Part shown: in pieces, positions 968 through 12,496 of the stretch
Position numbering within the stretch: the stretch's first letter is position 1
How the letters are laid out: every line of letters starts with the position of its first letter
Virus record (IMG/VR): IMGVR_UViG_2703719355_000002
Location: 1 to 12,551 of that record
Reading direction: 5' to 3' (one strand)
Length of the DNA: 12,551 nucleotides
Source of the DNA: a virus
Taxonomy: Duplodnaviria; Heunggongvirae; Uroviricota; Caudoviricetes
Notes under the pieces: generated by a model
What the model was told of the DNA's origin: nothing
Database searches by the model: none
The model's input: the letters and a program-made list of their open reading frames with translations, nothing else
Translations under genes and position numbers: made by a program

Positions 968-1582
968 TCAGGCCGCTATCAATGGAAATTCTTTCTCCAA
1001 TTCTCGTTTCATTGCATAAAACATTTCTGACTCCAGCACTTTCTCACACCACACCACTCGCTTACGACAATATTGAATATCAGCACCTGTTATATAAGAA
1101 ATCATCCTGGCTATATCTTGCGTGCAATTGCGATTGCAATATCGCTTAATAGCTACATCGCGGACGGGGCTTTCACGGTGAAAAGTCTTGACCATCACAC
1201 GTTCAACGAAAGCCGCATCATCTGATTCTTTGGCGAGAGTGATGATGTGGCTAAACGATGATTGAGGAATGACCAGTTCGCGAGCTTTCTTGTATAGCAC
1301 ATCTCCGCGCAGCCCATCTTCTTCGTACAGGCGCATGACGACAGACTCTATCTGCTTAGCCTTGTCATCGCTCCACTGACTGCGAATCATCAGACGACCG
1401 ATAACGTTAATTGCACCACCTGGAGAGCAATCTCCGGCATTAACCTTGCCCCATACCTGTAACATGTAATGAACCCATGCTTTCTGGCTAGAGTTGATGG
1501 TTTTCTTCGGGTGTCTCCATACGCGGCGAAAGTGCGCGTCATTAATGAAGTTAACCATGCTGAATACTGGAGTTAACCGCAT
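968..1582 (-). CDS. Putative late-gene antiterminator Q-like protein (204 aa from the ATG at 1582..1580)
   Basis: ORF-track ORF 968..1612; I place the start at internal Met11 (ATG 1582..1580) because it has a GGGAGG RBS 5 nt upstream and a TGATG overlap with the preceding small ORF stop. Assigned as Q by position (after rusA/nin genes, before late leader, terminator and lysis genes). I do not recognise the sequence as lambda Q or DLP12 QuuD, so the functional call is positional. Confidence 0.5.
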   Translation of the reverse strand: MRLTPVFSMVNFINDAHFRRVWRHPKKTINSSQKAWVHYMLQVWGKVNAGDCSPGGAINVIGRLMIRSQWSDDKAKQIESVVMRLYEEDGLRGDVLYKKARELVIPQSSFSHIITLAKESDDAAFVERVMVKTFHRESPVRDVAIKRYCNRNCTQDIARMISYITGADIQYCRKRVVWCEKVLESEMFYAMKRELEKEFPLIAA

Positions 1583-1725
1583 CAGACCTCCCATCCTTTG
1601 CAATGACACCACACTTCAAACATTCGTTTCACAACCTCACGGCAGTAGAAACCGCCAGTATCGCGGGTAAGATCGTAGCGATTGCCATAACGCTGGCGCA
1701 TATATCGTTCGAATGCTTTGTTCAT
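1582..1725 (-). CDS. Small hypothetical protein, 47 aa (MNKAFERYMRQRYGNRYDLTRDTGGFYCREVVKRMFEVWCHCKGWEV), possible Cys/His metal-binding
   Basis: Hand-translated; ATG 1725..1723 overlaps the rusA stop as ATGA and its TGA overlaps the Q-like ATG (TGATG). Fills the rusA-Q gap exactly; position corresponds to ylcG in DLP12. Below the ORF-track length cutoff. Confidence 0.5.
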   Translation of the reverse strand: MNKAFERYMRQRYGNRYDLTRDTGGFYCREVVKRMFEVWCHCKGWEV

Positions 1726-2084
1726 ACGTTCTCCAGTTCGGTGATTTTTATTCCAAGCCTTCCGCCTGGTACTTTCACACCACGAATTACGCGAATGTCA
1801 TCGAATTGCTCGTCGTCTTCCGCAAATCCGGCGTGGATAAGGGAGTCGAGTAAACCTTTCAGGATGTTATCGAGGTCGCGGCGGCGGGAGTCTGGAACGT
1901 CTGCGATGACTTTGATGCGGAGTCGTGATTTTGTGAAAATATCTAACTTGAGTTGGTGGATGATTTGCTGAACGTCTTTTCGGTATTTCTGGCCTTTATC
2001 GCTGATGTAGTATTGGCTTCCCCGTCTTCGCCAGTAGGTATTCAACGACGGCGGGTATGGAAGCACAAACTGATATTCGTTCAT
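1722..2084 (-). CDS. rusA: Holliday-junction resolvase RusA (crossover junction endodeoxyribonuclease)
   Basis: 120 aa; PPS.N.YY...., PD.RRRDLDN and GGRL motifs align with my recollection of E. coli RusA (MNTYSITLPWPPSNNRYY...PDRRRRDLDNLQKA...KGGRLELTITE). ATGA overlap with the upstream ybcO-like gene. Confidence 0.9.
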   Translation of the reverse strand: MNEYQFVLPYPPSLNTYWRRRGSQYYISDKGQKYRKDVQQIIHQLKLDIFTKSRLRIKVIADVPDSRRRDLDNILKGLLDSLIHAGFAEDDEQFDDIRVIRGVKVPGGRLGIKITELENV

Positions 2085-2371
2085 GACTTAATCTTCCCCT
2101 CCTTCAGCAGTATCGCCTGCGTCCTGATCACGCCTTCGAGGTGGTAAAGTCTGGCGTCTTTGTTGTCGAGAATCCTTGTGCGTCGGTCGATCTCCGCGTG
2201 GCAGTCACTACAAGCCCATGCGCCGATCAGGTCGTCAGGCTTCATCCCCGTTCCACAAATTCCAGCCATCCGGTAATGTGCCAGAACTGTAGTTTCAGGA
2301 TTGCCATTGCATACGCCGTAAATACGTACCTGGCATTCTCTGCCGCGCGCTTCTTTGCGTAGGTTAGCCAT
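2081..2371 (-). CDS. ybcO: YbcO-like DUF1364 protein (putative zinc-binding nuclease of nin regions)
   Basis: 96 aa; MANLRKEARGRECQVRIYGVCNGNPETTVLAHYR...CSDCHAEIDRRT matches my recollection of DLP12 YbcO (MADLRKAARGRECQVRIPGVCNGNPETSVLAH...CSACHDEIDRRT). GAGGGAAGG RBS; ATGGCTAA overlap with the upstream ORF stop. Confidence 0.8.
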   Translation of the reverse strand: MANLRKEARGRECQVRIYGVCNGNPETTVLAHYRMAGICGTGMKPDDLIGAWACSDCHAEIDRRTRILDNKDARLYHLEGVIRTQAILLKEGKIKS

Positions 2372-2576
2372 TTACCTTCCCTCGCAATTGAAGAATTGAC
2401 TGAAGGTCTTTTTTAATAAATATGCGAGTGCGAATTGAGCAGTAGTTTTCCTTCATTCTGGCGTAGTAATAGTCCTTTCTTTGCTTAAGTTTGTTGGCAT
2501 CCGCTGTCATCCAGTCTTTTACAGCAAACTTAATTAGCCAGCGGTGGCAGAGATACCATTTCAGGTAATCACTCAT
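2364..2576 (-). CDS. Hypothetical nin-region protein, 70 aa
   Basis: ORF in the same co-directional chain, start overlaps the ninF stop (ATGAGTGA). No family recognised. Confidence 0.45.
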   Translation of the reverse strand: MSDYLKWYLCHRWLIKFAVKDWMTADANKLKQRKDYYYARMKENYCSIRTRIFIKKDLQSILQLRGKVNG

Positions 2577-2739
2577 CGTCTTCTTCCTCGTACATTGAGC
2601 TATTCGGATCGCTCATCAGTTCTGCGCAGCAGTGCTCACACACGTGAACTTCCAGCACATGCAGCTTCTGACCGCAGTTAGCGCACGTTAAAGCTCGCTC
2701 GACGCTTTCTTGTTCGTAACTTCGATTTGGGTCAATCAC
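2569..2739 (-). CDS. ninF: NinF-like protein (start placed at GTG 2739..2737; alternative ATG at 2781 would give 70 aa)
   Basis: C-terminal [38 protein letters not shown]...EEEDD matches my recollection of lambda NinF. The GTG start has a GAGGA RBS 7 nt upstream and a GTGA overlap with the ninE stop; the ATG at 2781 would overlap ninE by 46 nt. Confidence 0.6.
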
Positions 2740-2918
2740 CTTGTATTCCTCGCACGATGTCTTAGCCACCGGATATCCCACAGGTGAGCCGTGTAGTTGA
2801 AGGTTTTTACGTCAGATTCTTTCGGGATTGGCTTGCGTTTATTTCTGTAGCGTTTCGTTGGAAGGTATTTGCAGTTTTCGCAGATTATGTCGGTGATACT
2901 TCGTCGCTGTCGCCTCAT
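2736..2918 (-). CDS. ninE: NinE-like protein (60 aa from internal ATG 2918..2916)
   Basis: [60 protein letters not shown] matches my recollection of lambda NinE almost residue for residue. ATGA overlap with the dam stop. The longer ORF-track version (start 3008) lies inside dam and is rejected. Confidence 0.75.
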
Positions 2919-3445
2919 GCCGCCCTCCTGACGCCATGCCCGATTGCCATCAATGCCGCTTTGGATACGGTAGTAAACATCCGTCGAGGACTGATGAACG
3001 GTCGCCAAATCAGCAGCATGGAGCCTTTGCTGTTTCCCTTCTTCTCCAGCCCTGTCGATGGTTCGATAAAATTAATCCGTCCATCAGTGATGATGCGAAC
3101 TTCGTCGACACTCTCCAGAGCCTTGCTGAACCATCCGACTGACATATCCTCTGGCACAAGCATCACTACCGTCTGTCGCTGTTGTATGCACTGCTCAGCG
3201 GTTTTTTCCACCCACGGCCTGATATTGCTGTACGGTGGGTTATTCCAGATTGCACCGTGGCTTATCCACTCAGAATTGAGCGCGTCGTCGACCTCAGTTA
3301 GCCAGTGAGCGCACAGAGCGTTTTTGTCGCTCGCAGCTGAATCCAGCCAGAATCCAAACTCAATATCCAGTGCATCAAAAAGCCAAAGCGGCGTTTGCCA
3401 GCAGTCTCTAACTTCTTTTGGTGTTTCTGATTTATGCTTAATCAT
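2915..3445 (-). CDS. Phage DNA N6-adenine methyltransferase (phage Dam family)
   Basis: 176 aa with the NPPY catalytic motif ([10 protein letters not shown]) and the N-terminal [12 protein letters not shown]...FGF..DSAAS signature typical of phage Dam-type MTases in nin regions. GAGGG RBS; ATGA overlap with the HNH gene stop. Confidence 0.85.
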
Positions 3446-3969
3446 TCAACCCTCGCATATTGTCCGTGATATTTGTTGATAGCCTCACTGGCAACCAAAC
3501 CAGCAAGCTCAAGATCTTCATAGAACCCAAAATGCAACCGGCCAAAATCTGTGCGCACTTGAACGGCCCATTTATTTTTTTGCTTGTTCCATAAAACATT
3601 TTTTATTCCAGAACGGCTATTGCACTTAGTTTTCTGATTTCGGCTGTTTGCTATCCGGCTTGCCTCCCTAAGATTTTTTGGGGAATTGTCCAGCCTGTTT
3701 CCGTTAATATGGTCAATATTTTTCAATGGCATTCTTTTGTTGTGCAGCGCAAAAACAACTACGTGAACAAACATCTGAATGCCTGCAAAACACACCTGTC
3801 TATACCCAGATCCATTTATCGATGTTTTAATTTCATCTCCGGCCCGGTGGCTGTGGTTGGGGTGTTTTAGCGAGTCCTTTTTGTATCTGACTGTATCTCC
3901 GTCTAAATACAGATAATCCTCAATAAGCCGATACCTATCTGACGCTGGCGTATTTGATTTGATAGTCAT
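3442..3969 (-). CDS. HNH homing endonuclease (HNH plus AP2-like DNA-binding C-terminus), 175 aa from ATG 3969..3967
   Basis: His-Asn-His motif region HVVVFALHNKRMPLKNIDHINGNRLDNSPKNLREASRIANSRN; C-terminal KNVLWNKQKNKWAVQV...HFGFYEDLELA resembles AP2-domain tails of phage HNH endonucleases. ATGA overlap with the preceding HNH gene; GGGGAGA RBS. Confidence 0.8.
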   Translation of the reverse strand: MTIKSNTPASDRYRLIEDYLYLDGDTVRYKKDSLKHPNHSHRAGDEIKTSINGSGYRQVCFAGIQMFVHVVVFALHNKRMPLKNIDHINGNRLDNSPKNLREASRIANSRNQKTKCNSRSGIKNVLWNKQKNKWAVQVRTDFGRLHFGFYEDLELAGLVASEAINKYHGQYARVE

Positions 3970-4568
3970 GCAGCACTGTCTCCCCATCTCGCTTTCATTG
4001 TTTCATTTGCAAATCGCCAGAATCTTCCTTTGTGATATGAGCTTTCGCCATTACAGCAACGACTAATTGACGAACTATCAAATCCTTCTCTGACAGCATC
4101 CATAGCTGCTTCATAATAAACCTCCTCCCCAGTTTTCATGTCAGTAGAAATAACGGCTTTACTGGCAGGGTGATCACCACTAAATTTACCTAGCGATATA
4201 GGTATTCTTCCATTTTGTTTATATCCGTGCTTTGAGTTTTCAGAATGAGATACCCATTCAAGGTTTTCAGCCCTATTGTCATCTCTTTGCCCATTTTTGT
4301 GATTAACTACCAAGCCATCACAGAACCCTGTACAGAATGCTTTCGCAACTATCCTGTGGGCGCTGTATTTCTTACCGTATACCTTTATTTGAAGATATCC
4401 TGTCGACTTGCACTTGAATGGTTTTACGCTAGTGCCATTAATTATTTTCTTATATGGCCTCTGTCTGGTTGATGTTACTGTAATTTCCCTCGCAATAGAC
4501 CTGAAATTTCCTTTATTGCTAACCTGATAAAATGGAATTCCTTCGATATCTACCCAAACCTCAATCAT
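3966..4568 (-). CDS. HNH homing endonuclease (NUMOD4-like N-terminus plus HNH), 200 aa
   Basis: N-terminal EVWVDIEGIPFYQVSNKGNFRS (NUMOD4-like), HRIVAKAF and VNHKNGQRDDNRAENLEWVSHSEN (HNH motif). GGAGGAATT RBS; start overlaps the ninB stop. Confidence 0.8.
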   Translation of the reverse strand: MIEVWVDIEGIPFYQVSNKGNFRSIAREITVTSTRQRPYKKIINGTSVKPFKCKSTGYLQIKVYGKKYSAHRIVAKAFCTGFCDGLVVNHKNGQRDDNRAENLEWVSHSENSKHGYKQNGRIPISLGKFSGDHPASKAVISTDMKTGEEVYYEAAMDAVREGFDSSSISRCCNGESSYHKGRFWRFANETMKARWGDSAA

Positions 4569-5320: not shown

Positions 5321-7201
5321 TTAATACTCCGTCACGTTTTCCTGTCGCCACGCCTCGTCATATTCCGATTTCGGCATATTGGCGATGTAGCTATATGGCG
5401 ATCCTGATTCAAGTTGCAGGAACTGGTGCGATTGCTCGTCAAGGAACAACGGGACACCACCTTCCCAACCTTCGCCGTTACGTTGTTTTTCAAGCATCAA
5501 AACAGATGCCGGAGATGCCAGTAGCTGTTCGTCCTTCTCTGACATCTTTTCACCACTCTGAACTCTCTGTAACGCTCTCTCGCGAGCCTTGTTACGCCAG
5601 ATGATGAAAAGGTTGTCTGTCAGGTCTGTTATCGCTCCAGAGCCTTTTACGTCCATTTTCCCGGTTGGTTTTTCTTCGCTGTCTCCTTTTCGCGAGTGAG
5701 TAACGAGAATGACGTGGGAGTTTGTTTTGTTTTTGAAGTCGCAAATCGAGTCAACAAAAGCCTTCTGCCCGTTATAGTCATCGTCGCCTATGCCACATTT
5801 CATCAGGCTGTCGATGATGAATAACTGGATCCCGTATCGGCGGCGAGCGTAGTCGAATATTTCGATCAGCCTGTCGGCTTTCGCCGTTCCGGTCAGGCCA
5901 AACACCCAAAGTCTTTCGTCATAAAATTTAAATGCAGAGTCAATTTCCAGCACTGGCGGCATCTTGCAGCACGTCGCCTGACGGGTAAGGCGCTTAAGGA
6001 GAATACCAGGCTTCAGCTCAAGTGACGCGATGCACGTCTTCACTCCCTGACGCATTGCCTCAAGTGCCATATGCCCGACAACCTCCGTTTTTCCGTGACC
6101 GTTCACACCATTGACCAGCGTCAACTCTGCCTCACGGAACTGGAATTTATCTGCCAGAGATTCCCACGGTGGATTAAACAGATACTGCTGCTTGCCGTAG
6201 AAAGCGTTGATAGTGTCCTGGTAAAACTCTCGCGCACTGTAGAGTTCTTCAGGATCGAAGTAGGATGCCGTGCCGATGTACTGCCAGATTTCATCCTCGG
6301 TAACACCGTTCATCAGGCATTCGTTGATGTCTTTGTACGGCAGAGTAACAAGACGGCAACGATGTTCACCGAGTCGGCTTGCGATTTCCCTTGCGGCTTC
6401 ACGACCAACATCATCAACGTCCATCGAGATGAATATTTCCTCAAACCTGTCGAGGTTGTGGTACTCAAACTCAATCCACTGTTGCTTAGCGCCTTTCCCT
6501 CCACCAAACGGCACGGATAACGCCGAGATGCCGTATTGCGCATAGCTCATACAATCAATTTCGCCTTCGCAAAGTACAACCGCCCTCACGCCAGCGTCCA
6601 GAGCCTGCCATCCGAACAGACAAGGTTCGCAATCACCTTCTGCCATAATGACTTTCTTCCCGTCCGGGCGCTCAGTGCTGATTCGCTTGACCTGCAACAA
6701 CTCACCATCGCGTTTGTACGGAAGCACCAGTGCATCAAGTTCTCGTTCTCCATTCCACACCTTGCCGCTGACAACCTCGTAGCGCTTTACGACTTCTGGC
6801 GATATGCCACGCGATTGCAGGTACTCAAGATGGGATTCTGTTCTGGTAACGTAGCGGGCGATTTTCTTGCGGTCAGGTCTGGAGAATTTCTTCTCACGTT
6901 TGGCATCGAAATGGTGATCGTCATCCTTGATACCGAGAAATGCTTTCGCTTCCTGCATAGCCTGATGCAGGTTAATTCCACGACATGCCATCCACAAATC
7001 AAGCATGTCACCGCCGTCTCCCTCAGCGAAATCAGCCCATTTTTTCTTGCCGCTAAGGTTGACCTTAAGGCTGTTTCCCTTGTCACCGTTGACGTTACCG
7101 GCAACCCACTCATGCCCCTCTTTCTTGCCGTTTGGCAACAGGTGCGGAGCCACCCTGTCAACCTGCGCCCAAAGCAGGTCGCTGAGTTCACTTGGCCTCA
7201 T
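5321..7201 (-). CDS. Bifunctional DNA primase-helicase (Toprim primase domain plus DnaB/RecA-like helicase domain)
   Basis: 626 aa. Toprim signature: VVLCEGEIDCMSYAQYG ... ISMDVDDVGREAA. Helicase: Walker A GVNGHGKT, Walker B-like LFIIDSLMKC, ILVTHSRKG. GAGGGA RBS. Sits in the lambda P position downstream of the initiator. Confidence 0.9.
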   Translation of the reverse strand: MRPSELSDLLWAQVDRVAPHLLPNGKKEGHEWVAGNVNGDKGNSLKVNLSGKKKWADFAEGDGGDMLDLWMACRGINLHQAMQEAKAFLGIKDDDHHFDAKREKKFSRPDRKKIARYVTRTESHLEYLQSRGISPEVVKRYEVVSGKVWNGERELDALVLPYKRDGELLQVKRISTERPDGKKVIMAEGDCEPCLFGWQALDAGVRAVVLCEGEIDCMSYAQYGISALSVPFGGGKGAKQQWIEFEYHNLDRFEEIFISMDVDDVGREAAREIASRLGEHRCRLVTLPYKDINECLMNGVTEDEIWQYIGTASYFDPEELYSAREFYQDTINAFYGKQQYLFNPPWESLADKFQFREAELTLVNGVNGHGKTEVVGHMALEAMRQGVKTCIASLELKPGILLKRLTRQATCCKMPPVLEIDSAFKFYDERLWVFGLTGTAKADRLIEIFDYARRRYGIQLFIIDSLMKCGIGDDDYNGQKAFVDSICDFKNKTNSHVILVTHSRKGDSEEKPTGKMDVKGSGAITDLTDNLFIIWRNKARERALQRVQSGEKMSEKDEQLLASPASVLMLEKQRNGEGWEGGVPLFLDEQSHQFLQLESGSPYSYIANMPKSEYDEAWRQENVTEY

Positions 7202-7305
7202 GATTCCCTCAGATTGAGATTTTTAAACCAGAAATCGACAAACGAAATACTTAACCAGCCGTGGTTATAACCAGCGACCAGTAGCGATTTGATTTTTGAT
7301 TTCAT
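7198..7305 (-). CDS. Candidate 35-aa micro-ORF (MKSKIKSLLVAGYNHGWLSISFVDFWFKNLNLRES)
   Basis: Hand-translated; AGGTGA RBS 4 nt upstream, stop TGA overlaps the primase-helicase ATG (ATGA). Fills the initiator-primase gap. Confidence 0.3.
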   Translation of the reverse strand: MKSKIKSLLVAGYNHGWLSISFVDFWFKNLNLRES

Positions 7306-7308
7306 GGT

Positions 7309-8085
7309 TCACCTGTCGAAAAACACGTAGCCAGTTTTCGATACGGTGATTGCGGATGATGGTTTGGATTGTGGTTGAATAGTTTCTGGCTTCTCGTCGT
7401 TCCAGCGCTGACCGTTCAGGTAGCTCGATGGTAACAACCTGTCGAATCCGAACTGCTTACCATTCCTGCATGCGATGTCTTCTGCCAGCATCGTGGCAAA
7501 CTCGCTTGCCGTACCCCTGGTAGTTTTACGCCATTCCCTGAACTGTGTTCTGAATGCTGAAGCTGCGTTTTTCTTCCCGGCTTTCCGCATGCCTGCACAC
7601 CAGAATATTTCCTCGAACGCCTTGTCGGTTTCTTCGTGACGGTCAGGAGTTTTTTCACACTCTGTTCGGACATGTTCGAACATAATGTTTTTAGGTTCAT
7701 TGACTGGTTCAAAAGAGTGATAGGTTCTGGGGGCAGCTCCTGCCCCACCCCCTAGGGCAGCTCCTGCCCCACCCCGGGCAGCTCCTGCCCCACCTGATTC
7801 TGGTTGGATTTGTTGTGCATTATCCAGCGTCAGATAAAAAACGTTTGACTGGTTAAGCTCTCCTTTTCTTCTGAGTTCCCTTTTCAAAAGCCCCATCTCT
7901 TCCAGTGCCCTAATGTGATTTTTTACTGTCGATCTGCTCACCTCACACTGGTCAGCGACATGTTGATATGAAGGCCAGCATTCGCCATTATCATTGGCGT
8001 TATCGGCAAGTTTAATCAGAACCAGTTTTCTCAGTGGGTTGCCAACCTTTATATTCATGGCCTTAGCCATAAGATTCATGCTCAT
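7309..8085 (-). CDS. Replication initiator (O-like): N-terminal HTH DNA-binding domain, Gly/Ala linker, C-terminal DnaT-like domain
   Basis: 258 aa. N-terminal LRKLVLIKLADNANDNGECWPSYQHVADQCEVSRSTVKNHIRALEEMGLL is a typical phage replication-protein HTH; central GGAGAARGGAGAALGGGAGAAP linker; the C-terminal domain resembles DnaT-like replication proteins (lower confidence). GGAGAA RBS. Located between cII and the primase-helicase. Confidence 0.8.
   Translation of the reverse strand: MSMNLMAKAMNIKVGNPLRKLVLIKLADNANDNGECWPSYQHVADQCEVSRSTVKNHIRALEEMGLLKRELRRKGELNQSNVFYLTLDNAQQIQPESGGAGAARGGAGAALGGGAGAAPRTYHSFEPVNEPKNIMFEHVRTECEKTPDRHEETDKAFEEIFWCAGMRKAGKKNAASAFRTQFREWRKTTRGTASEFATMLAEDIACRNGKQFGFDRLLPSSYLNGQRWNDEKPETIQPQSKPSSAITVSKTGYVFFDR
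7729..7794. repeat. Three tandem copies of the palindrome GGGCAG-CTC-CTGCCC (period 24/21 bp) inside the initiator gene: candidate origin iterons
   Basis: Seen directly: ggggcagctcctgcccc at 7730..7746, gggcagctcctgccc at 7755..7769 and 7776..7790. They encode the in-frame Gly/Ala linker. Analogous to ori-lambda iterons inside the O gene. Confidence 0.6.
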
Positions 8086-8225
8086 TTTGACTTCTCCGAA
8101 GTTTTGTACCTGTTAAGTATTTCTCTCAGTGGCACAGCTATTGCTGGATTAACCCCTTGATAAAACTGGTCACGTAGCACATCTTTTCGGTGATTAACGC
8201 GTTTATTTTCCTGCGTTTTTCGCAT
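8082..8225 (-). CDS. Small basic hypothetical protein, 47 aa (MRKTQENKRVNHRKDVLRDQFYQGVNPAIAVPLREILNRYKTSEKSK)
   Basis: Internal start of ORF-track ORF 8082..8393; ATG 8225..8223 has a GAGGT RBS (GAGGTAATTATATG) and lies just after the cII stop; its stop overlaps the initiator ATG (ATGA). The upstream part of the track ORF overlaps cII in another frame and is rejected. Confidence 0.4.
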   Translation of the reverse strand: MRKTQENKRVNHRKDVLRDQFYQGVNPAIAVPLREILNRYKTSEKSK

Positions 8226-8247
8226 ATAATTACCTCGCTGGATGTTG

Positions 8248-8547
8248 TTAAAATTCCATTTGTATTTGATCAGAACGCTCGGTCTTGCACACCGGGCGTT
8301 TTTTCTTTGTGATTTCATCAAGCGCATACTTAAAAGCCCTGCTAATCGGACTGATGTCTGATGCCATTCCGAAAGCACACAAGACTGAAGCAATAAATCT
8401 CCAGTCCGTTCTGCTTATCTTCGATTCATGACAGCCAATCATCTTTGCCAGACCGCGCTGGGTAAGCGTTGACAGGTTGATGAGTAAATCTGTTTCTGCG
8501 CGATCAACGTCGCGCTGTGATAGTTTGCTGTAACTTGTTTGTTCCAT
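8248..8547 (-). CDS. cII: CII-like transcriptional activator (lysogeny establishment)
   Basis: 99 aa; HTH region plus a C-terminus KKKRPVCKTERSDQIQMEF that matches my recollection of lambda CII (...KKRPAATERSEQIQMEF). Position between cro and the replication genes. Confidence 0.85.
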   Translation of the reverse strand: MEQTSYSKLSQRDVDRAETDLLINLSTLTQRGLAKMIGCHESKISRTDWRFIASVLCAFGMASDISPISRAFKYALDEITKKKRPVCKTERSDQIQMEF

Positions 8548-8557
8548 TTCTTATGAT
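8525..8557 (+). promoter_or_regulatory. PRE-like CII-dependent promoter: TTGC-N6-TTGT (8525..8538) with -10 TATGAT (8552..8557)
   Basis: Plus-strand TTGCtgtaacTTGT lies inside cII codons 4-8 on the opposite strand, the same arrangement as lambda PRE (TTGC-N6-TTGC in cII codons 3-7); TATGAT sits 13 nt further on, matching lambda spacing. Would drive antisense-cro/cI transcription. Confidence 0.5.
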
Positions 8558-8599
8558 TTCCAATAGTGAATATTACGCATCTGTTGATGCGTTTTTTGT

Positions 8600-8637
8600 G
8601 GGGACGAATCATCCCCGACCTGATTGTTTAAAGAGCG
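8600..8637 (-). promoter_or_regulatory. nutR-like site: boxA CGCTCTTTAAACA (8637..8625, minus) and boxB hairpin GGGGAUGAUUCGUCCCC (8616..8600, minus)
   Basis: boxA closely matches the boxA consensus as I recall it (CGCTCTTA / rrn GCTCTTTAACAA). The boxB hairpin (5-bp stem GGGGA/UCCCC, 7-nt loop) is identical to the one at 10819..10835 on the plus strand. Located just downstream of cro, as in lambda. Confidence 0.6.
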
Positions 8638-8644
8638 GTGTTAC

Positions 8645-8869
8645 TTATGCTGCCTGATTCGGTTTTGGAAACAGGTGTGGCAAATCGGGGCGAATTTCAT
8701 AAGCCTTGATCTGCCCTCCAGTGGCGTTAACGATGGCGGTAACTTTCTCTGGAGAGACCAACCCGCCTTTCAGCCATTTGTGTACTGCTGGCTGCGTTAC
8801 ACCACACTTGTCGGCAAGGCGCTTTTGGCTACCGACAATTTTCAAGGCTCGTTGAATTACTAAATTCAT
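8645..8869 (-). CDS. cro: Cro-like repressor (HTH), 74 aa from ATG 8869..8867
   Basis: HTH QKRLADKCGVTQPAVHKWLKG; divergent from cI across the operator region; AGAGGT RBS 6 nt upstream of the chosen ATG. The ORF-track start at 8890 has no RBS and would place the start inside the promoter. Confidence 0.8.
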   Translation of the reverse strand: MNLVIQRALKIVGSQKRLADKCGVTQPAVHKWLKGGLVSPEKVTAIVNATGGQIKAYEIRPDLPHLFPKPNQAA

Positions 8870-8902
8870 GAGCATACCTCTTGTGGTCATTACTTATAAC
8901 CA

Positions 8903-8931
8903 AAGATAACTCAAGTTATAAAAAATAGCAA
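8903..8931 (-). promoter_or_regulatory. PR-like promoter (-35 TTGCTA at 8931..8926, 17-bp spacer, -10 TATCTT at 8908..8903)
   Basis: Read on the minus strand; the -10 and spacer are overlapped by the operator at 8906..8919 and the -35 abuts the operator at 8931..8944. Predicted start about 25 nt upstream of the cro ATG. Confidence 0.5.
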
Positions 8932-8968
8932 TAACCTTTGTTATTTTACTTTGGATAACCGTAGTTAT
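8906..8968. promoter_or_regulatory. OR operator array: three 14-bp palindromes ATAAC-N4-GTTAT at 8906..8919, 8931..8944 and 8955..8968
   Basis: ATAACTCAAGTTAT, ATAACCTTTGTTAT, ATAACCGTAGTTAT; centres spaced 25 and 24 bp, in the cro-cI intergenic region. The same consensus recurs at the proposed OL (10710..10748). Confidence 0.65.
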
Positions 8969-8971
8969 AGA
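8966..8971 (+). promoter_or_regulatory. Candidate PRM -10 (TATAGA), which would make cI mRNA leaderless
   Basis: TATAGA lies 9 nt upstream of the cI ATG at 8981, inside/adjacent to the third operator; no good -35, as expected for an activated PRM. Weak by-eye call. Confidence 0.25.
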
Positions 8972-8980
8972 TTTGTGGGT

Positions 8981-9688
8981 ATGAAAACATTCGCAGAAAG
9001 ACTAAATGCAGCCATGAGCTCAGCAGGTGTGTCGCAATCACAGCTTGCTGACATGGTTGGAATATCTCAGCCAGCCATACAGAAGATGTCATCCGGTAAA
9101 ACAAACGGATCTCGCAAGATGGTTGAATTAGCCAATGCTTTAAAAGTACGCCCTGAATGGCTTAGCTCTGGTATTGGTGAAATGAGGGATGGTACACATG
9201 AAGAACCATCCAATGTCCGTGAATCATCTTTAAAAGCTGTGGTATGGGAAGATATTAAAAGAAACGATGACGAGTTTGTCGCGTTGCCTCTTCTTAACGT
9301 TTCGCTTTCAGCTGGAAGCGGTAGCTGCGAGCTAGAGGAATCATCAGAGTTCTCTTTGGTTTTCAGAAAGTACTATCTGAAAAAGATGGGGGTATCTGAA
9401 AGATCAGCCAAGCTAGTTAGGGTTGTAGGGCAAAGCATGGAACCAACGCTTCACGACGGAGATGTTGTTGGCGTTAACACACAAGATACCACAATCAGAG
9501 ATGGTAAAACCTACGCTATTTGCCAGTCTGATTTGTTACGAGTAAAAACATTAATCGCCACCCCAACATCGGTGATAATCAGATCAATAAATCGCGAAGA
9601 GTACCCAGATGAAGTAATGGATAGAGATGAATTTAATAAAACCGTAAGGATTATTGGCAGAGTATTCTGGTCGTCTCATAGTTGGTAA
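8981..9688 (+). CDS. cI: CI-type prophage repressor (N-terminal HTH, C-terminal LexA/S24 autopeptidase domain), 235 aa from ATG 8981
   Basis: HTH QSQLADMVGISQPAIQKMSSG; Ala-Gly cleavage site in SLSAGSG; catalytic Ser in GQSMEPT and Lys in LRVKTLI. The TTG start at 8951 proposed by the ORF track overlaps the third operator, so ATG 8981 is preferred. Confidence 0.9.
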   Translation: MKTFAERLNAAMSSAGVSQSQLADMVGISQPAIQKMSSGKTNGSRKMVELANALKVRPEWLSSGIGEMRDGTHEEPSNVRESSLKAVVWEDIKRNDDEFVALPLLNVSLSAGSGSCELEESSEFSLVFRKYYLKKMGVSERSAKLVRVVGQSMEPTLHDGDVVGVNTQDTTIRDGKTYAICQSDLLRVKTLIATPTSVIIRSINREEYPDEVMDRDEFNKTVRIIGRVFWSSHSW

Positions 9689-12283: not shown

Positions 12284-12355
12284 GCGCGGCGTTACCGCAT
12301 ACCAATAACGCTTCACTCGAGGCGTTTTTCGTTATGTATAAATAAGGAGCACACC

Positions 12356-12496
12356 ATGCAATATGCCATTGCAGGGTGGCCTGTTGCTGGCTGCCCTTCC
12401 GAATCTTTACTTGAGCGAATCACACGTAAATTACGTGACGGATGGAAACGCCTTATCGACATACTTAATCAGCCAGGAGTTCCAAAAAATGGATAA
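12356..12496 (+). CDS. cIII: CIII (FtsH/HflB inhibitor that stabilises CII), 46 aa
   Basis: Hand-translated: MQYAIAGWPVAGCPSESLLERITRKLRDGWKRLIDILNQPGVPKNG, matching my recollection of lambda CIII residues 1-46 including the conserved amphipathic helix; AAGGAG RBS 7 nt upstream. Stops 8 codons short of lambda's 54 aa. Confidence 0.8.
   Translation: MQYAIAGWPVAGCPSESLLERITRKLRDGWKRLIDILNQPGVPKNG

Follow-up and report, generated by a model that had tools for sequence, protein, structure and literature searches.

We report a candidate replication origin that lies within the initiator gene of a prophage. In a 12,551-nucleotide stretch of tailed-phage DNA (IMG/VR record IMGVR_UViG_2703719355_000002; hereafter the window, meaning the whole of this stretch), three GC-rich repeats in the middle of the initiator ORF are most likely the initiator's own binding sites, and most likely make up a previously undescribed, lambda-style origin for one replication type of Stx phages. 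The dosage of Shiga-toxin genes is driven by the replication that Stx prophages undergo once induced. The Eru replication types of these phages now serve to grade enterohaemorrhagic E. coli by virulence, and their origins and initiators are uncharacterised (PMC8044961, PMC8951638).

The initiator joins an HTH_36 domain to a shared C-terminal module

The initiator gene lies on the minus strand, downstream of cII and upstream of a primase-helicase gene, and matched PHROG 'replication initiation protein / O-like' families. In phi24B, Stx2a_F403 and Min27, its 98.6% identical counterpart is annotated O. The features of this region are as follows.

7309-8085, minus strand: initiator ('O-like') gene, 258 aa (ORF and translation, Pfam, PHROG families)
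7813-8085, minus strand: N-terminal winged-helix DNA-binding domain, aa 1-91 (Pfam match; nine-homolog alignment)
Within 7813-8085, minus strand: recognition helix of the N-domain, around ...SRSTVKNHIRAL...
7730-7796: putative iteron array of three dyad-symmetric units, encoding a Gly/Ala linker (repeat finding; position as in the epsilon34/Sf101 iterons)
7309-7692, minus strand: C-terminal module of the initiator (about 95% nucleotide identity to the lambda-O-type initiators of epsilon34, Sf101, mEp043, g341c and SEN22)
5321-7201, minus strand: primase-helicase, 626 aa, with Toprim_2 and a DnaB-like/AAA_25 domain (Pfam; PHROG 239 'DNA primase/helicase', E = 3e-171)

Domain matches and alignments indicate that the initiator is built of two modules, an HTH_36 N-terminal DNA-binding domain and a C-terminal module common to other phages. 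Pfam placed HTH_36 (PF13730) at residues 17-67 (E = 7e-14), in agreement with the N-terminal helix-turn-helix domain proposed in a first-pass annotation of this DNA, and we aligned the N-domain across nine divergent homologs. The protein carries both PF13730 and the signature MSM..KVGN..RKLVL.KLADNA.D.G.CWPS of a group of HTH_36-type phage initiators that includes SfV orf39, ST64B sb42, ZF40 gp14 and phi24B O (PHROGs 4617/270/8540). A Pfam search of the initiator gave no match to PF04492 (Phage_rep_O), and hhalign comparison of the HTH_36 N-domain alignment with lambda-O-type N-termini returned a probability of 0.4%. We dropped the idea of kinship between the two kinds of N-domain on this profile-profile value, and the earlier claim that the initiator belongs to a different family from lambda O holds. 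The best match in a sequence search of the PDB had E = 0.25. The AlphaFold2 model predicted from this one sequence was unusable, with a mean pLDDT of 35.5, and is uninformative on domain boundaries and linker disorder.

The C-terminal module comprises aa 132-258, and the initiator has a shared tail, PSSAITVSKTGYVFFDR. The same 1881-bp Toprim/DnaB-like gene lies downstream of the initiator in epsilon34, Sf101, mEp043, g341c and SEN22. The primase-helicase that it encodes is presumably the replisome component loaded at the origin.

Three dyad-symmetric repeats follow the HTH_36 domain

The array consists of three direct copies of GGGCAGCTCCTGCCCCACC(CC/TG), at 7731-7751, 7755-7775 and 7776-7796. 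Their 15-nt cores, GGGCAG-CTC-CTGCCC, lie at 7731-7745, 7755-7769 and 7776-7790 (gene nt 296-355 of 777), straight after the HTH_36 domain and with start-to-start spacings of 24 and 21 bp. This confirms the three copies and the 24/21-bp periodicity described in the first-pass annotation, whose limits for the array, 7729-7794, were right within 2 nt. Each unit is also, as had been claimed, a perfect inverted repeat, in which a 3-nt spacer separates two arms (GGGCAG/CTGCCC) of 6 bp, or of 7 bp in the copy at 7730-7746. The units are 75% GC, and Tandem Repeats Finder scored the array at 103, top among the window's four arrays. With up to 3 mismatches allowed, 0.15 matches to the core were expected by chance; 6 strand-matches were observed, a number reached by 0 of 200 shuffles. 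The core motif occurs nowhere else in the 12.5-kb window. A search for promoters and terminators in 7100-9000 did not rise above chance, with 3 promoter-like sites against 2.5 expected, and we therefore claim no origin-associated promoter.

Across the repeats the minus-strand ORF reads ...PESGGAGAARGGAGAALGGGAGAAPRT..., and its translation agrees with the array peptide given previously, GGAGAA-R-GGAGAA-L-GGGAGAA. The dyad is partly a by-product of this coding, because the codons for Gly (GGN) are complementary to those for Ala (GCN). Exact enumeration of all synonymous codings of GGAGAA plus R, L or P showed that Gly/Ala coding alone yields a palindrome whose arms reach 6 bp or more at a probability of 0.05-0.15. 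As the three copies are duplicates of one another and the dyad is partly a product of the codons, the palindrome in the window alone is weak evidence.

The units co-vary with the recognition helix across relatives

We examined relatives of the HTH_36 N-domain, from 12 divergent homologs in phages (N-terminal identity 33-74%) and from 80 loci of IMG/VR; the distinct relatives number 69. Near-palindromic units were found at gene nt ~245-400 in all of these relatives, usually 3-7 of them at a spacing of 21-25 bp; the array of Pseudomonas MD8 also has 17-nt steps. A comparison of repeats among homologs had been suggested earlier, and in it a unit was never missing at this position. Within a family of units, spacings of 22, 23 and 25 nt place one motif in several reading frames: TATGCCA occurs in frames 0,2,0,0, as does TGGGGCA in two loci (L050 and L057). 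Other relatives carry inverted units (GGGGCAGCTCCTGCCC versus GGGGCAGGAGCTGCCC, GTGAATCTCCTGCAC versus GTGCAGGAGATTCAC and GGTCATGAGCTGCCC versus GGGCAGGAGCTGACC). Because frames and orientations differ, so do the encoded peptides, and it is therefore the DNA that is conserved rather than the peptide. The peptides encoded by the relatives' units are unrelated (PMPSDGT, PVPPKST, SDKMSP, SAGDS...). The left half-site is the only well-conserved part of the unit in many relatives.

The class of the unit tracked the class of the recognition helix with zero exceptions among the 69 distinct loci, in the following pairs.

Helix RSTVK.H[IV]R: unit TGGGGC[AG]
Helix CS[KR][ST]AVRNHIDA: unit TATGCCA..TGGCA
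Helix CSKSAVKAHITA: unit CTGTGCC..GCACAG
Helix S[KR]RSVM.HI: unit GTGCA..TTCAC
Helix DKRTAMRHISH: unit GTGACA-AAA-TGTCAC

Units are identical within one genome, and their number varies from 1 to 9 among near-identical genes. Among natural variants, Stx2_16002 has 1 unit, EH2086 has 2, phi24B has 3 and EH2085 has 7. Intact initiator ORFs with a single unit were found in L021, L022 and L028 (243 aa) and in the complete Stx2a phage record Stx2_16002. The N-domain, the units and a 39-nt block beside them (described below) move as one module: SI5 and S137 have the same left module joined to another C-domain, and the break is at 7692/7693. This module is present in 129 of 5426 complete E. coli genomes, and the same layout occurs in SfV, ST64B, ZF40 and many Vibrio, Klebsiella and Pseudomonas phages.

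Chimeric genes carry lambda-type iterons at the position of the units

The C-terminal 385 nt of epsilon34 gp50 and Sf101 O are ~95% identical to the window's initiator, and both phages have the same 1881-bp primase-helicase gene. Their N-termini are PF04492 Phage_rep_O domains (E = 1e-35 and 1e-37, respectively). Homology with the window begins at AAAAACATTATG (7681-7692), so that the module junction falls at 7692/7693. In the exact slot of the GGGCAG units, epsilon34 and Sf101 carry lambda-type iterons, ATCCCTCAAAATGAGGGA..., spaced at 20/24/23. The origin role of lambda-type iterons is established (PMC7466680, PMC3349717). The epsilon34 record annotates its iteron stretch as a putative origin, the only such annotation that we found. 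In lambda itself (NC_001416), iterons with the same 20/24/23 spacing lie at gene nt 349-433 of 900 and are followed by 40 nt of 77.5% AT and, after the AT-rich region, by the dyad GTCAGAG-N14-CTCTGAC. The window has the same order of iterons, low-GC stretch and dyad, which upholds the likeness to ori-lambda noted in the first-pass annotation. Its reading of an origin inside the initiator gene is likewise supported by comparison, through the shared slot in epsilon34 and Sf101 and the units in all examined relatives. Together, these comparisons make it probable that the three GGGCAG-N3-CTGCCC units are iterons, bound by dimers of the HTH_36 N-domain, and that they form the core of the prophage origin.

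A conserved 11-mer block and a low-GC stretch adjoin the array

Beyond the array, in the direction of transcription, we found a conserved block, a low-GC stretch and a dyad; a further copy of the block's 11-mer lies on the array's other side.

7693-7731, minus strand: family-wide conserved DNA block, sense strand CCCAGAACCTATCACTCTTTTGAACCAGTCAATGAACCT, putative unwinding/loading element
7680-7719: lowest-GC 40-mer in the ORF (GC 0.325), core of the 'moderately AT-rich' 7660-7728, candidate unwinding region
7663-7682: near-palindrome TGTTCGGACATGTTCGAACA (plus strand), just past the AT-rich stretch
7846-7856, minus strand: extra 11-mer copy TTAACCAGTCA, 1 mismatch, in the wing-coding region

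A moderately AT-rich stretch at about 7660-7728 had been proposed as following the repeats. It does contain the lowest-GC 40-mer of the ORF, and GC drops from 0.80 (7740-7779) to 0.325 (7680-7719), but its AT content, 62%, is only modestly above the 54.7% of the whole window and lies below the 74% of the corresponding stretch of epsilon34 and the 77.5% of that of lambda. Its least stable 40-mer reaches only the 3.6th percentile of the window by helix stability, and several less stable regions are present in the window. We dropped a 'strongly AT-rich unwinding element' as a supporting argument because the helix-stability profile does not single the stretch out. At the site of the near-palindrome, alignment showed that epsilon34 and Sf101 keep a hairpin, GTCCGAA-AGCG-TTCGGAC, with one compensatory change from T-A to C-G.

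Between the iterons and the AT-rich stretch lies a block of direct repeats of the 11-mer (A/T)GAACCAGTCA, at 7718-7728 (2 mismatches), 7701-7711 (exact) and 7689-7699 (half copy). The first-pass annotation had passed over this block. Its 13 codons are 94% identical at amino-acid-identical sites, compared with 40% in the N-domain, where the best 13-codon window reaches at most 52%. The 11-mer copies are read in two frames because they lie 17 nt apart, and in Vibrio phage 236O40-1 the first copy is in another frame. In every lineage, the array is immediately followed by the block and the low-GC stretch. A blastn search with the block stretch found matches in 139 phage records, from Vibrio to Escherichia; among the 40 phage records listed, none has an origin annotated under the match. 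We rejected recent recombination as the sole cause of the 94% codon identity, because the 39-nt island has diverged or unrelated flanks across Vibrio, Pseudomonas, Aeromonas and enterobacterial phages and because its two copies sit in different frames. The extra 11-mer on the array's other side recurs at the same place in the gene (nt 231) in 7 of the 14 loci that were sampled from the lineage with GGGGCAG iterons.

Discussion

We infer initiator binding, unwinding, helicase recruitment and origin firing at the array. By analogy with ori-lambda, rightward early transcription from pR would lead to expression of the initiator, dimers of which would then fill the three sites. These would lie on one face of the helix, as the 21/24-bp phasing is close to two helical turns. 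The nucleoprotein complex would destabilise the adjoining 11-mer block and low-GC stretch (~7660-7730), and once the DNA is open, the C-terminal module of the initiator would load the phage's Toprim/DnaB-like primase-helicase (5321-7201) onto it. The iterons encode a Gly/Ala peptide that would serve as a tolerant interdomain linker, and the array could therefore gain or lose units (from 1 to 9 or more) with survival of the protein.

Several observations count against an origin at the array. The post-iteron stretch is not the window's least stable DNA, the window's first 11-mer is degenerate, and intact single-unit genes exist, whereas lambda needs at least two iterons according to the work cited in PMC7466680 (Dodson 1986; Wickner & McKenney 1987). 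Simple replication slippage would also yield identical units in 1 to 9 copies, the dyad is expected from the peptide alone with a probability of 0.05-0.15, and only its left half-site is well conserved in many relatives. The slippage pattern, the intact single-unit genes and the palindrome probability computed from the peptide alone would also suit a tandem repeat that is prone to slippage, codes for a flexible linker of Gly and Ala and has no DNA-level function, its dyad being a codon by-product. We regard this explanation as quite improbable: in relatives the motif occurs in other frames, inverted and with unrelated peptides, yet its position, spacing and dyad are kept; it follows the recognition helix without exception; and lambda-type iterons fill the same slot in chimeric genes.

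Another explanation grants that the N-domain binds the units and assigns this binding to autoregulation, a transcriptional roadblock or titration/handcuffing, with the origin elsewhere, for example near the primase-helicase gene. The comparative data indeed show co-evolution of protein and site rather than origin firing, and the existence of single-unit variants and the moderate AT content of the adjoining stretch, with less stable regions elsewhere in the window, also fit. Against it, the 12.5-kb window spans the whole early-right replication module and holds no other iteron-like array, the same C-terminal module and primase-helicase pair is served by lambda-type iterons at this position in epsilon34 and Sf101, and a conserved, non-coding-like 11-mer block with a low-GC stretch comes right after the array in all lineages; we consider it unlikely. 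The palindromes might instead act in RNA, as three stable hairpins in the early-right mRNA with an effect on translation, on the folding of domains or on the stability of the transcript. The fold of the strand is better than that of shuffled sequences (z = -3.2), and a GGGCGG...CTGCCC variant (L035, L036, L053-L055) would keep its pairing as a sense-RNA G-U wobble. However, many relatives have units (GGGGCAGGAGATAACCC, GGGCAGGAGCTGACC) that cannot pair, yet retain their phasing and left half-site; inverted units, and dyads whose spacers are 9-11 nt long, suit a dimeric DNA-binding protein better; Rfam has no RNA family in the region; and the co-variation with the helix is left unexplained. Action through RNA thus seems very improbable.

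Returning to the array as an origin, we also put forward a broader proposal, to which we lean somewhat less than to its opposite: HTH_36-type initiators, from Vibrio, Aeromonas and Pseudomonas to Stx phages, may share a common, undescribed tripartite in-gene origin with a universal 11-mer signal. Its parts would be lineage-specific dyad iterons that co-evolve with the helix, invariant (A/T)GAACCAGTCA 11-mers in the same orientation and a short AT-rich stretch. The 11-mer block would be conserved whatever the iteron specificity, host genus or helicase partner, and would act as a universal unwinding/loading signal. Either a conserved host factor would recognise it or the initiator would do so through a conserved surface, possibly with the block in single-stranded form.

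For the Eru5/phi24B type, these results provide a concrete candidate origin, composed of the three sites at 7731-7790, the 11-mer block and the low-GC stretch. The number of units may influence replication efficiency. More generally, a hypervariable 'linker repeat' in a protein may be a cis-acting DNA element, and in this family nature supplies initiators and iterons of matched specificity with which to study how origin recognition evolves.

Comparison with known systems

Iteron plasmid origins (such as those of F, R6K, RK2, pSC101 and P1) combine a winged-helix Rep protein with direct repeats of ~17-22 bp in helical phase and an adjacent unwinding element that contains short direct repeats. 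Plasmid iterons are usually intergenic, outside the rep ORF, and handcuffing is central to copy-number control. The window resembles these origins in its winged-helix initiator, its phased units and the short direct repeats of its adjacent putative unwinding element, and differs in that its array is embedded in the initiator ORF. In the Bacillus phage SPP1, oriL lies in gene 38, so that the sites of the origin-binding protein are inside its own gene; SPP1 is a Gram-positive phage with a different protein family and a different site architecture.

Gene 18 of P22 and of phage L, like the window's gene, encodes an initiator with its own distinct repeats in the coding region. These are distantly related or unrelated lambdoid initiators whose internal repeats have been interpreted as the origin; phage L has six imprecise 11-bp repeats of TGTCCAACGGA, and the partner of the gene 18 initiators is a DnaB-type helicase, gp12 (PMC8022706). 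The gene 18 repeats differ from the window's units in sequence and length. The Eru5 replication region (representative Stx2a_F403) shares with the window the near-identical initiator, an HTH_36 protein, and a primase-type gene. In the window, the Toprim/DnaB-like gene is downstream of the initiator, cro and cII additionally lie between cI and the initiator, and the primase-helicase (626 aa) is without the intein of phi24B's 968-aa version. No stx gene is present within the window, which matches the Eru5 type in its replication genes. The HTH_36 protein and the primase of Eru5 have been noted in Eru typing, a gene-content scheme that reports neither origin nor repeats and that states of Eru phage replication proteins that there is 'so far no knowledge' (PMC8951638). 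We found no description in the literature of these repeats, of a phi24B origin or iterons, or of HTH_36 iterons.

Another parallel is ori-lambda in gene O (lambda, 933W, P27; epsilon34 gp50, Sf101 O). As with the putative iterons of the window, dyad iterons spaced ~20-24 bp apart (lambda 20/24/23, window 21/24) lie mid-ORF between the parts coding for the N- and C-domains, and iterons, low-GC stretch and dyad follow one another in the direction of transcription. In epsilon34 and Sf101, lambda-type N-domains are fused to the very C-terminal module of the window's initiator. In contrast to ori-lambda, the window's N-domain is HTH_36 rather than Phage_rep_O, with no profile similarity between them; its iterons are GC-rich, unrelated in sequence and three in number instead of four to six; the post-iteron stretch has 62% AT against 74-78%; the conserved 11-mer block is absent from lambda-type origins; and the partner is a phage primase-helicase, whereas lambda uses P and host DnaB. 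With putative sites within the ORF, dyads about two turns apart and co-variation with the helix, the window appears, at the level of sequence, to match the lambdoid layout of an origin inside the initiator gene.

A repeat array inside the initiator gene

The window covers the immunity and early-right region of a lambdoid prophage, with NinB, HNH endonuclease and methylase genes beyond the primase-helicase gene.

Immunity and replication genes of the window
8951-9688 (+), cI-like repressor gene, Peptidase_S24 and HTH_3 domains
8248-8547 (-), cII, Phage_CII match (E = 1e-33)
7309-8085 (-), initiator ORF, 258 aa, Pfam HTH_36
5321-7201 (-), primase-helicase, 626 aa, Toprim and DnaB-like

The first-pass annotation had described three palindromic repeats with 24/21-bp periodicity in the initiator gene, encoding a Gly/Ala linker after the N-terminal HTH. 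The array was recovered as described: GGGCAGCTCCTGCCC occurs three times at spacings of 24 and 21 bp (7731-7745, 7755-7769 and 7776-7790), the 21-nt units share 90-100% mutual identity and span gene nt 296-355 of 777, and their coding strand reads GGAGAA-R-GGAGAA-L-GGGAGAA immediately past the Pfam HTH_36 domain. The three are copies of one another and form the window's best-scoring tandem array, and their motif is unique in the window (0.15 matches expected at ≤3 mismatches; none of 200 shuffles reached the observed count). The inverted symmetry of each unit was also seen, but a dyad with arms of ≥6 bp is expected from the peptide alone with a probability of 0.05-0.15 (exact enumeration of synonymous codings); the peptide sets four of the six arm pairs, because Gly (GGN) and Ala (GCN) codons complement each other. 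The moderately AT-rich stretch said to follow the array (7660-7728) has 62% AT vs 54.7% window-wide, with GC falling from 0.80 to 0.325 within 60 bp, but ranks only at the 3.6th percentile of nearest-neighbour stability. Whether the array is a DNA element or a linker repeat has to be decided by comparison with other genes, as the window by itself does not tell the two apart.

The initiator shares 98.6% identity with the gene that carries the annotation 'O' in the Stx2 phages phi24B, Stx2a_F403/F451 and Min27. This phi24B/Stx2a_F403/Min27-like initiator corresponds to replication type 'Eru5' of the Stx phages, on whose replication proteins nothing is known according to the Eru typing paper (PMC8951638). 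The 968-aa 'P' of phi24B (984-3890 of its sampled locus, L001) and the window's 626-aa protein are one and the same Toprim/DnaB-like primase-helicase, except that 'P' has an intein (Hom_end_hint and LAGLIDADG_3 domains, ~residues 379-634) that the window copy lacks. At 3442-3987 (-), 3966-4568 (-) and 2915-3445 (-), the nin-region equivalent holds two neighbouring HNH-endonuclease-family ORFs and a DNA methyltransferase ORF. Rfam Lambda_thermo (cIII thermoregulator element) matches 12343-12401 (+) (88.5 bits, E = 6e-21), which indicates a cIII-type gene start at the window's far end. At 8272-8302 (+), antisense to the cII 3' end, there is a strong hairpin of terminator type with a T-run, in the place expected of an oop-like antisense RNA's terminator; a scan gave no convincing promoter for such an RNA. 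The mechanical ORF at 8082-8393 (-) has a PHROG match limited to its last 47 codons (phrog_1913); the label 'tail protein' is probably a misnomer, and the true gene is probably a short ~47-aa ORF between cII and the initiator, like epsilon34 gp49 and its equivalent in Sf101.

Unit sequence follows the recognition helix

For the HTH_36 initiator family, the sample comprised twelve divergent phage homologs with 33-74% N-domain identity (Klebsiella ST15-VIM1phi2.1, Pectobacterium ZF40, SfV, Aeromonas AsXd-1 and 4_D05, Pseudomonas PseuP_222 and MD8, three Vibrio phages, mEp013 and S137) and 80 IMG/VR loci; 69 distinct loci were analysed. All 69 carry near-palindromic units at the equivalent gene position (nt ~245-400), mostly three to seven at spacings of 21-25 bp (MD8 has 17-nt steps besides). 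Spacings of 22, 23 and 25 nt shift one motif between reading frames: TATGCCA occurs in frames 0,2,0,0, as does TGGGGCA in L050 and L057, two relatives of the window lineage. Some units are also inverted in relatives (GGGGCAGCTCCTGCCC beside GGGGCAGGAGCTGCCC; GTGAATCTCCTGCAC vs GTGCAGGAGATTCAC; GGTCATGAGCTGCCC vs GGGCAGGAGCTGACC), where they encode unrelated peptides, and unit sequence tracks the recognition helix with no exception.

Recognition helices and their units
RSTVK.H[IV]R, unit TGGGGC[AG]
CS[KR][ST]AVRNHIDA, unit TATGCCA..TGGCA
CSKSAVKAHITA, unit CTGTGCC..GCACAG
S[KR]RSVM.HI, unit GTGCA..TTCAC
DKRTAMRHISH, unit GTGACA-AAA-TGTCAC

The last unit of AsXd-1 and PseuP_222, GTGCAG-GAG-CTGCAC, shows a symmetric two-arm change relative to the window unit. 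Frame shifts, inverted orientation and helix co-variation show that the DNA rather than the peptide is conserved. The Gly/Ala peptide that the array encodes is a tolerant linker, which is why unit number can vary from one to at least nine among near-identical genes (Stx2_16002, one; EH2086, two; phi24B, three; EH2085, seven; three to nine in the top 120 protein clusters). In one IMG/VR locus (L020, IMGVR_UViG_2537561977_000031), the initiator gene is broken inside the array after the second unit (gene nt ~335 onward), with unrelated sequence beyond and an ORF shortened to 122 aa; an insertion, or a rearrangement with its breakpoint at the repeats, may be the cause.

A conserved block adjoins the array

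Immediately following the array in nearly all family members is a near-invariant DNA block, CCCAGAACCAGTCACTCTTTTGAACCAGTCAATGAACC, that the first-pass annotation had missed. It holds two to four same-orientation copies of the 11-mer (A/T)GAACCAGTCA, spaced 17 or 12 nt. Because of the 17-nt spacing, copies fall into two reading frames (R-T-S-H and E-P-V), and Vibrio phage 236O40-1 has its first copy in yet another. Among gene pairs with <80% N-domain identity, codons at amino-acid-identical sites were identical in 94% of cases in the 13-codon block vs 40% across the N-domain, whose 13-codon windows reached ≤52%. Using the window's 191-nt origin region as query, blastn found the block in 139 phage records, 62 of them from Vibrio phages. 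Its location, with the iterons on one side and the AT-rich run on the other, and its lack of dependence on iteron specificity and helicase type suggest an unwinding or loading element.

Copies of the 11-mer in the window
7718-7728, two mismatches
7701-7711, exact
7689-7699, half copy
7846-7856, one mismatch, opposite side of the array

The exact 10-mer TTGACTGGTT (complement of AACCAGTCAA, the core of the 11-mer) lies on both array flanks, at 7700-7709 and 7845-7854, 145 bp apart. Of 14 sampled loci in the GGGGCAG-iteron lineage, 7 have its upstream copy at the matching gene position (nt 231).

DNA-binding domain and repeats are exchanged together

Over its 3' 385 nt (7309-7693), the initiator gene shares ~95% identity with the 3' portions of 'replication protein O' genes from epsilon34, g341c, Sf101, mEp043, SEN22 and others, each of which has the same 1881-bp primase-helicase gene downstream. 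The N-termini of epsilon34 and Sf101 differ from the window's, matching Pfam Phage_rep_O (E = 1e-35 and 1e-37), and on nucleotide alignment their lambda-type iterons fill exactly the GGGCAG-unit slot: four ATCCCTCAA...GAGGGA units spaced 20/24/23 in epsilon34, and GTCAC...GTGAC units in Sf101. An AT-rich run follows these iterons, and homology to the window starts at AAAAACATTATG (window 7681-7692). The epsilon34 record annotates its iteron stretch as a putative origin and gene 50 protein binding site. Both epsilon34 and Sf101 retain the near-palindrome at 7663-7682, with one compensatory pair change and different encoded amino acids. In SI5 and S137, two Salmonella phages, the HTH_36 N-domain with its units and the following 39 nt is joined to a different C-domain. 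These two types of chimera show that N-domain and repeats swap as one module, which is the pattern expected of an initiator with its cognate sites.

On the plus strand, antisense to the initiator gene, the 7663-7682 near-palindrome also scores as a weak terminator-like hairpin with a T-run. The SI5 and S137 C-domains are DnaT-like and otherwise unrelated to the window's, with the same primase-helicase gene downstream. The last ~17 initiator residues, PSSAITVSKTGYVFFDR (window 7309-7360 (-)), are common to both initiators (loci L004 and L097); this tail may be a helicase-docking peptide, or may be conserved merely as flanking DNA.

A probable prophage origin

The comparisons, together with the analogy to ori-lambda, make it quite probable that the units are iterons bound by HTH_36-domain dimers and that ~7650-7800 is the prophage origin. 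We infer initiator binding, unwinding, helicase recruitment and origin firing at the array: sites phased by two helical turns would be occupied cooperatively, as at ori-lambda, occupancy would destabilise the neighbouring block and low-GC stretch, and the exchangeable C-terminal module would recruit the phage primase-helicase. Against this reading, the AT content is modest, slippage alone would also yield identical units, and some intact initiator genes have a single unit, when lambda requires two iterons according to a statement cited in PMC7466680.

Slippage and the codon-imposed symmetry would suit a pure linker repeat, but this is contradicted by the frame shifts, inversions and helix co-variation, and we consider it improbable. 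Binding sites with a role other than origin function would accommodate those same observations and are somewhat less implausible, though still unlikely: the replication module has no other iteron-like array, and the same C-module and helicase work with lambda-type iterons at the array position. That the dyads act as RNA hairpins is very improbable, as many units in relatives are unable to pair. A single-sequence AlphaFold2 model of the initiator was uninformative (pLDDT 35.5), and a PDB sequence search, Rfam and a promoter scan returned nothing that lies within the repeat region or informs on it.

Relation to known origins

Phage lambda carries its own iterons inside its initiator gene. Further cases of this lambdoid pattern are P22, L and the Stx phages 933W and P27 (PMC8022706, PMC7466680, PMC3349717). 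In ori-lambda (NC_001416), four annotated 18-bp iterons (gene nt 349-433 of 900, spacing 20/24/23) precede 40 nt at 77.5% AT and the hyphenated dyad GTCAGAG-N14-CTCTGAC. The window has the same order of units (nt 296-355 of 777), low-GC stretch and near-palindrome TGTTCGAACATGTCCGAACA (7663-7682), in line with the likeness drawn at first pass. The first-pass claim of a different initiator family was confirmed: whereas lambda-O-type initiators belong to PF04492, the window's DNA-binding domain is HTH_36, with no PF04492 match and an hhalign probability of 0.4% against lambda-O-type N-domains. Our search of the literature and phage-record annotations found no description of window-type repeats. 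The window probably represents a further initiator-iteron pair of the lambdoid kind, and its most novel element is the family-wide 11-mer block.
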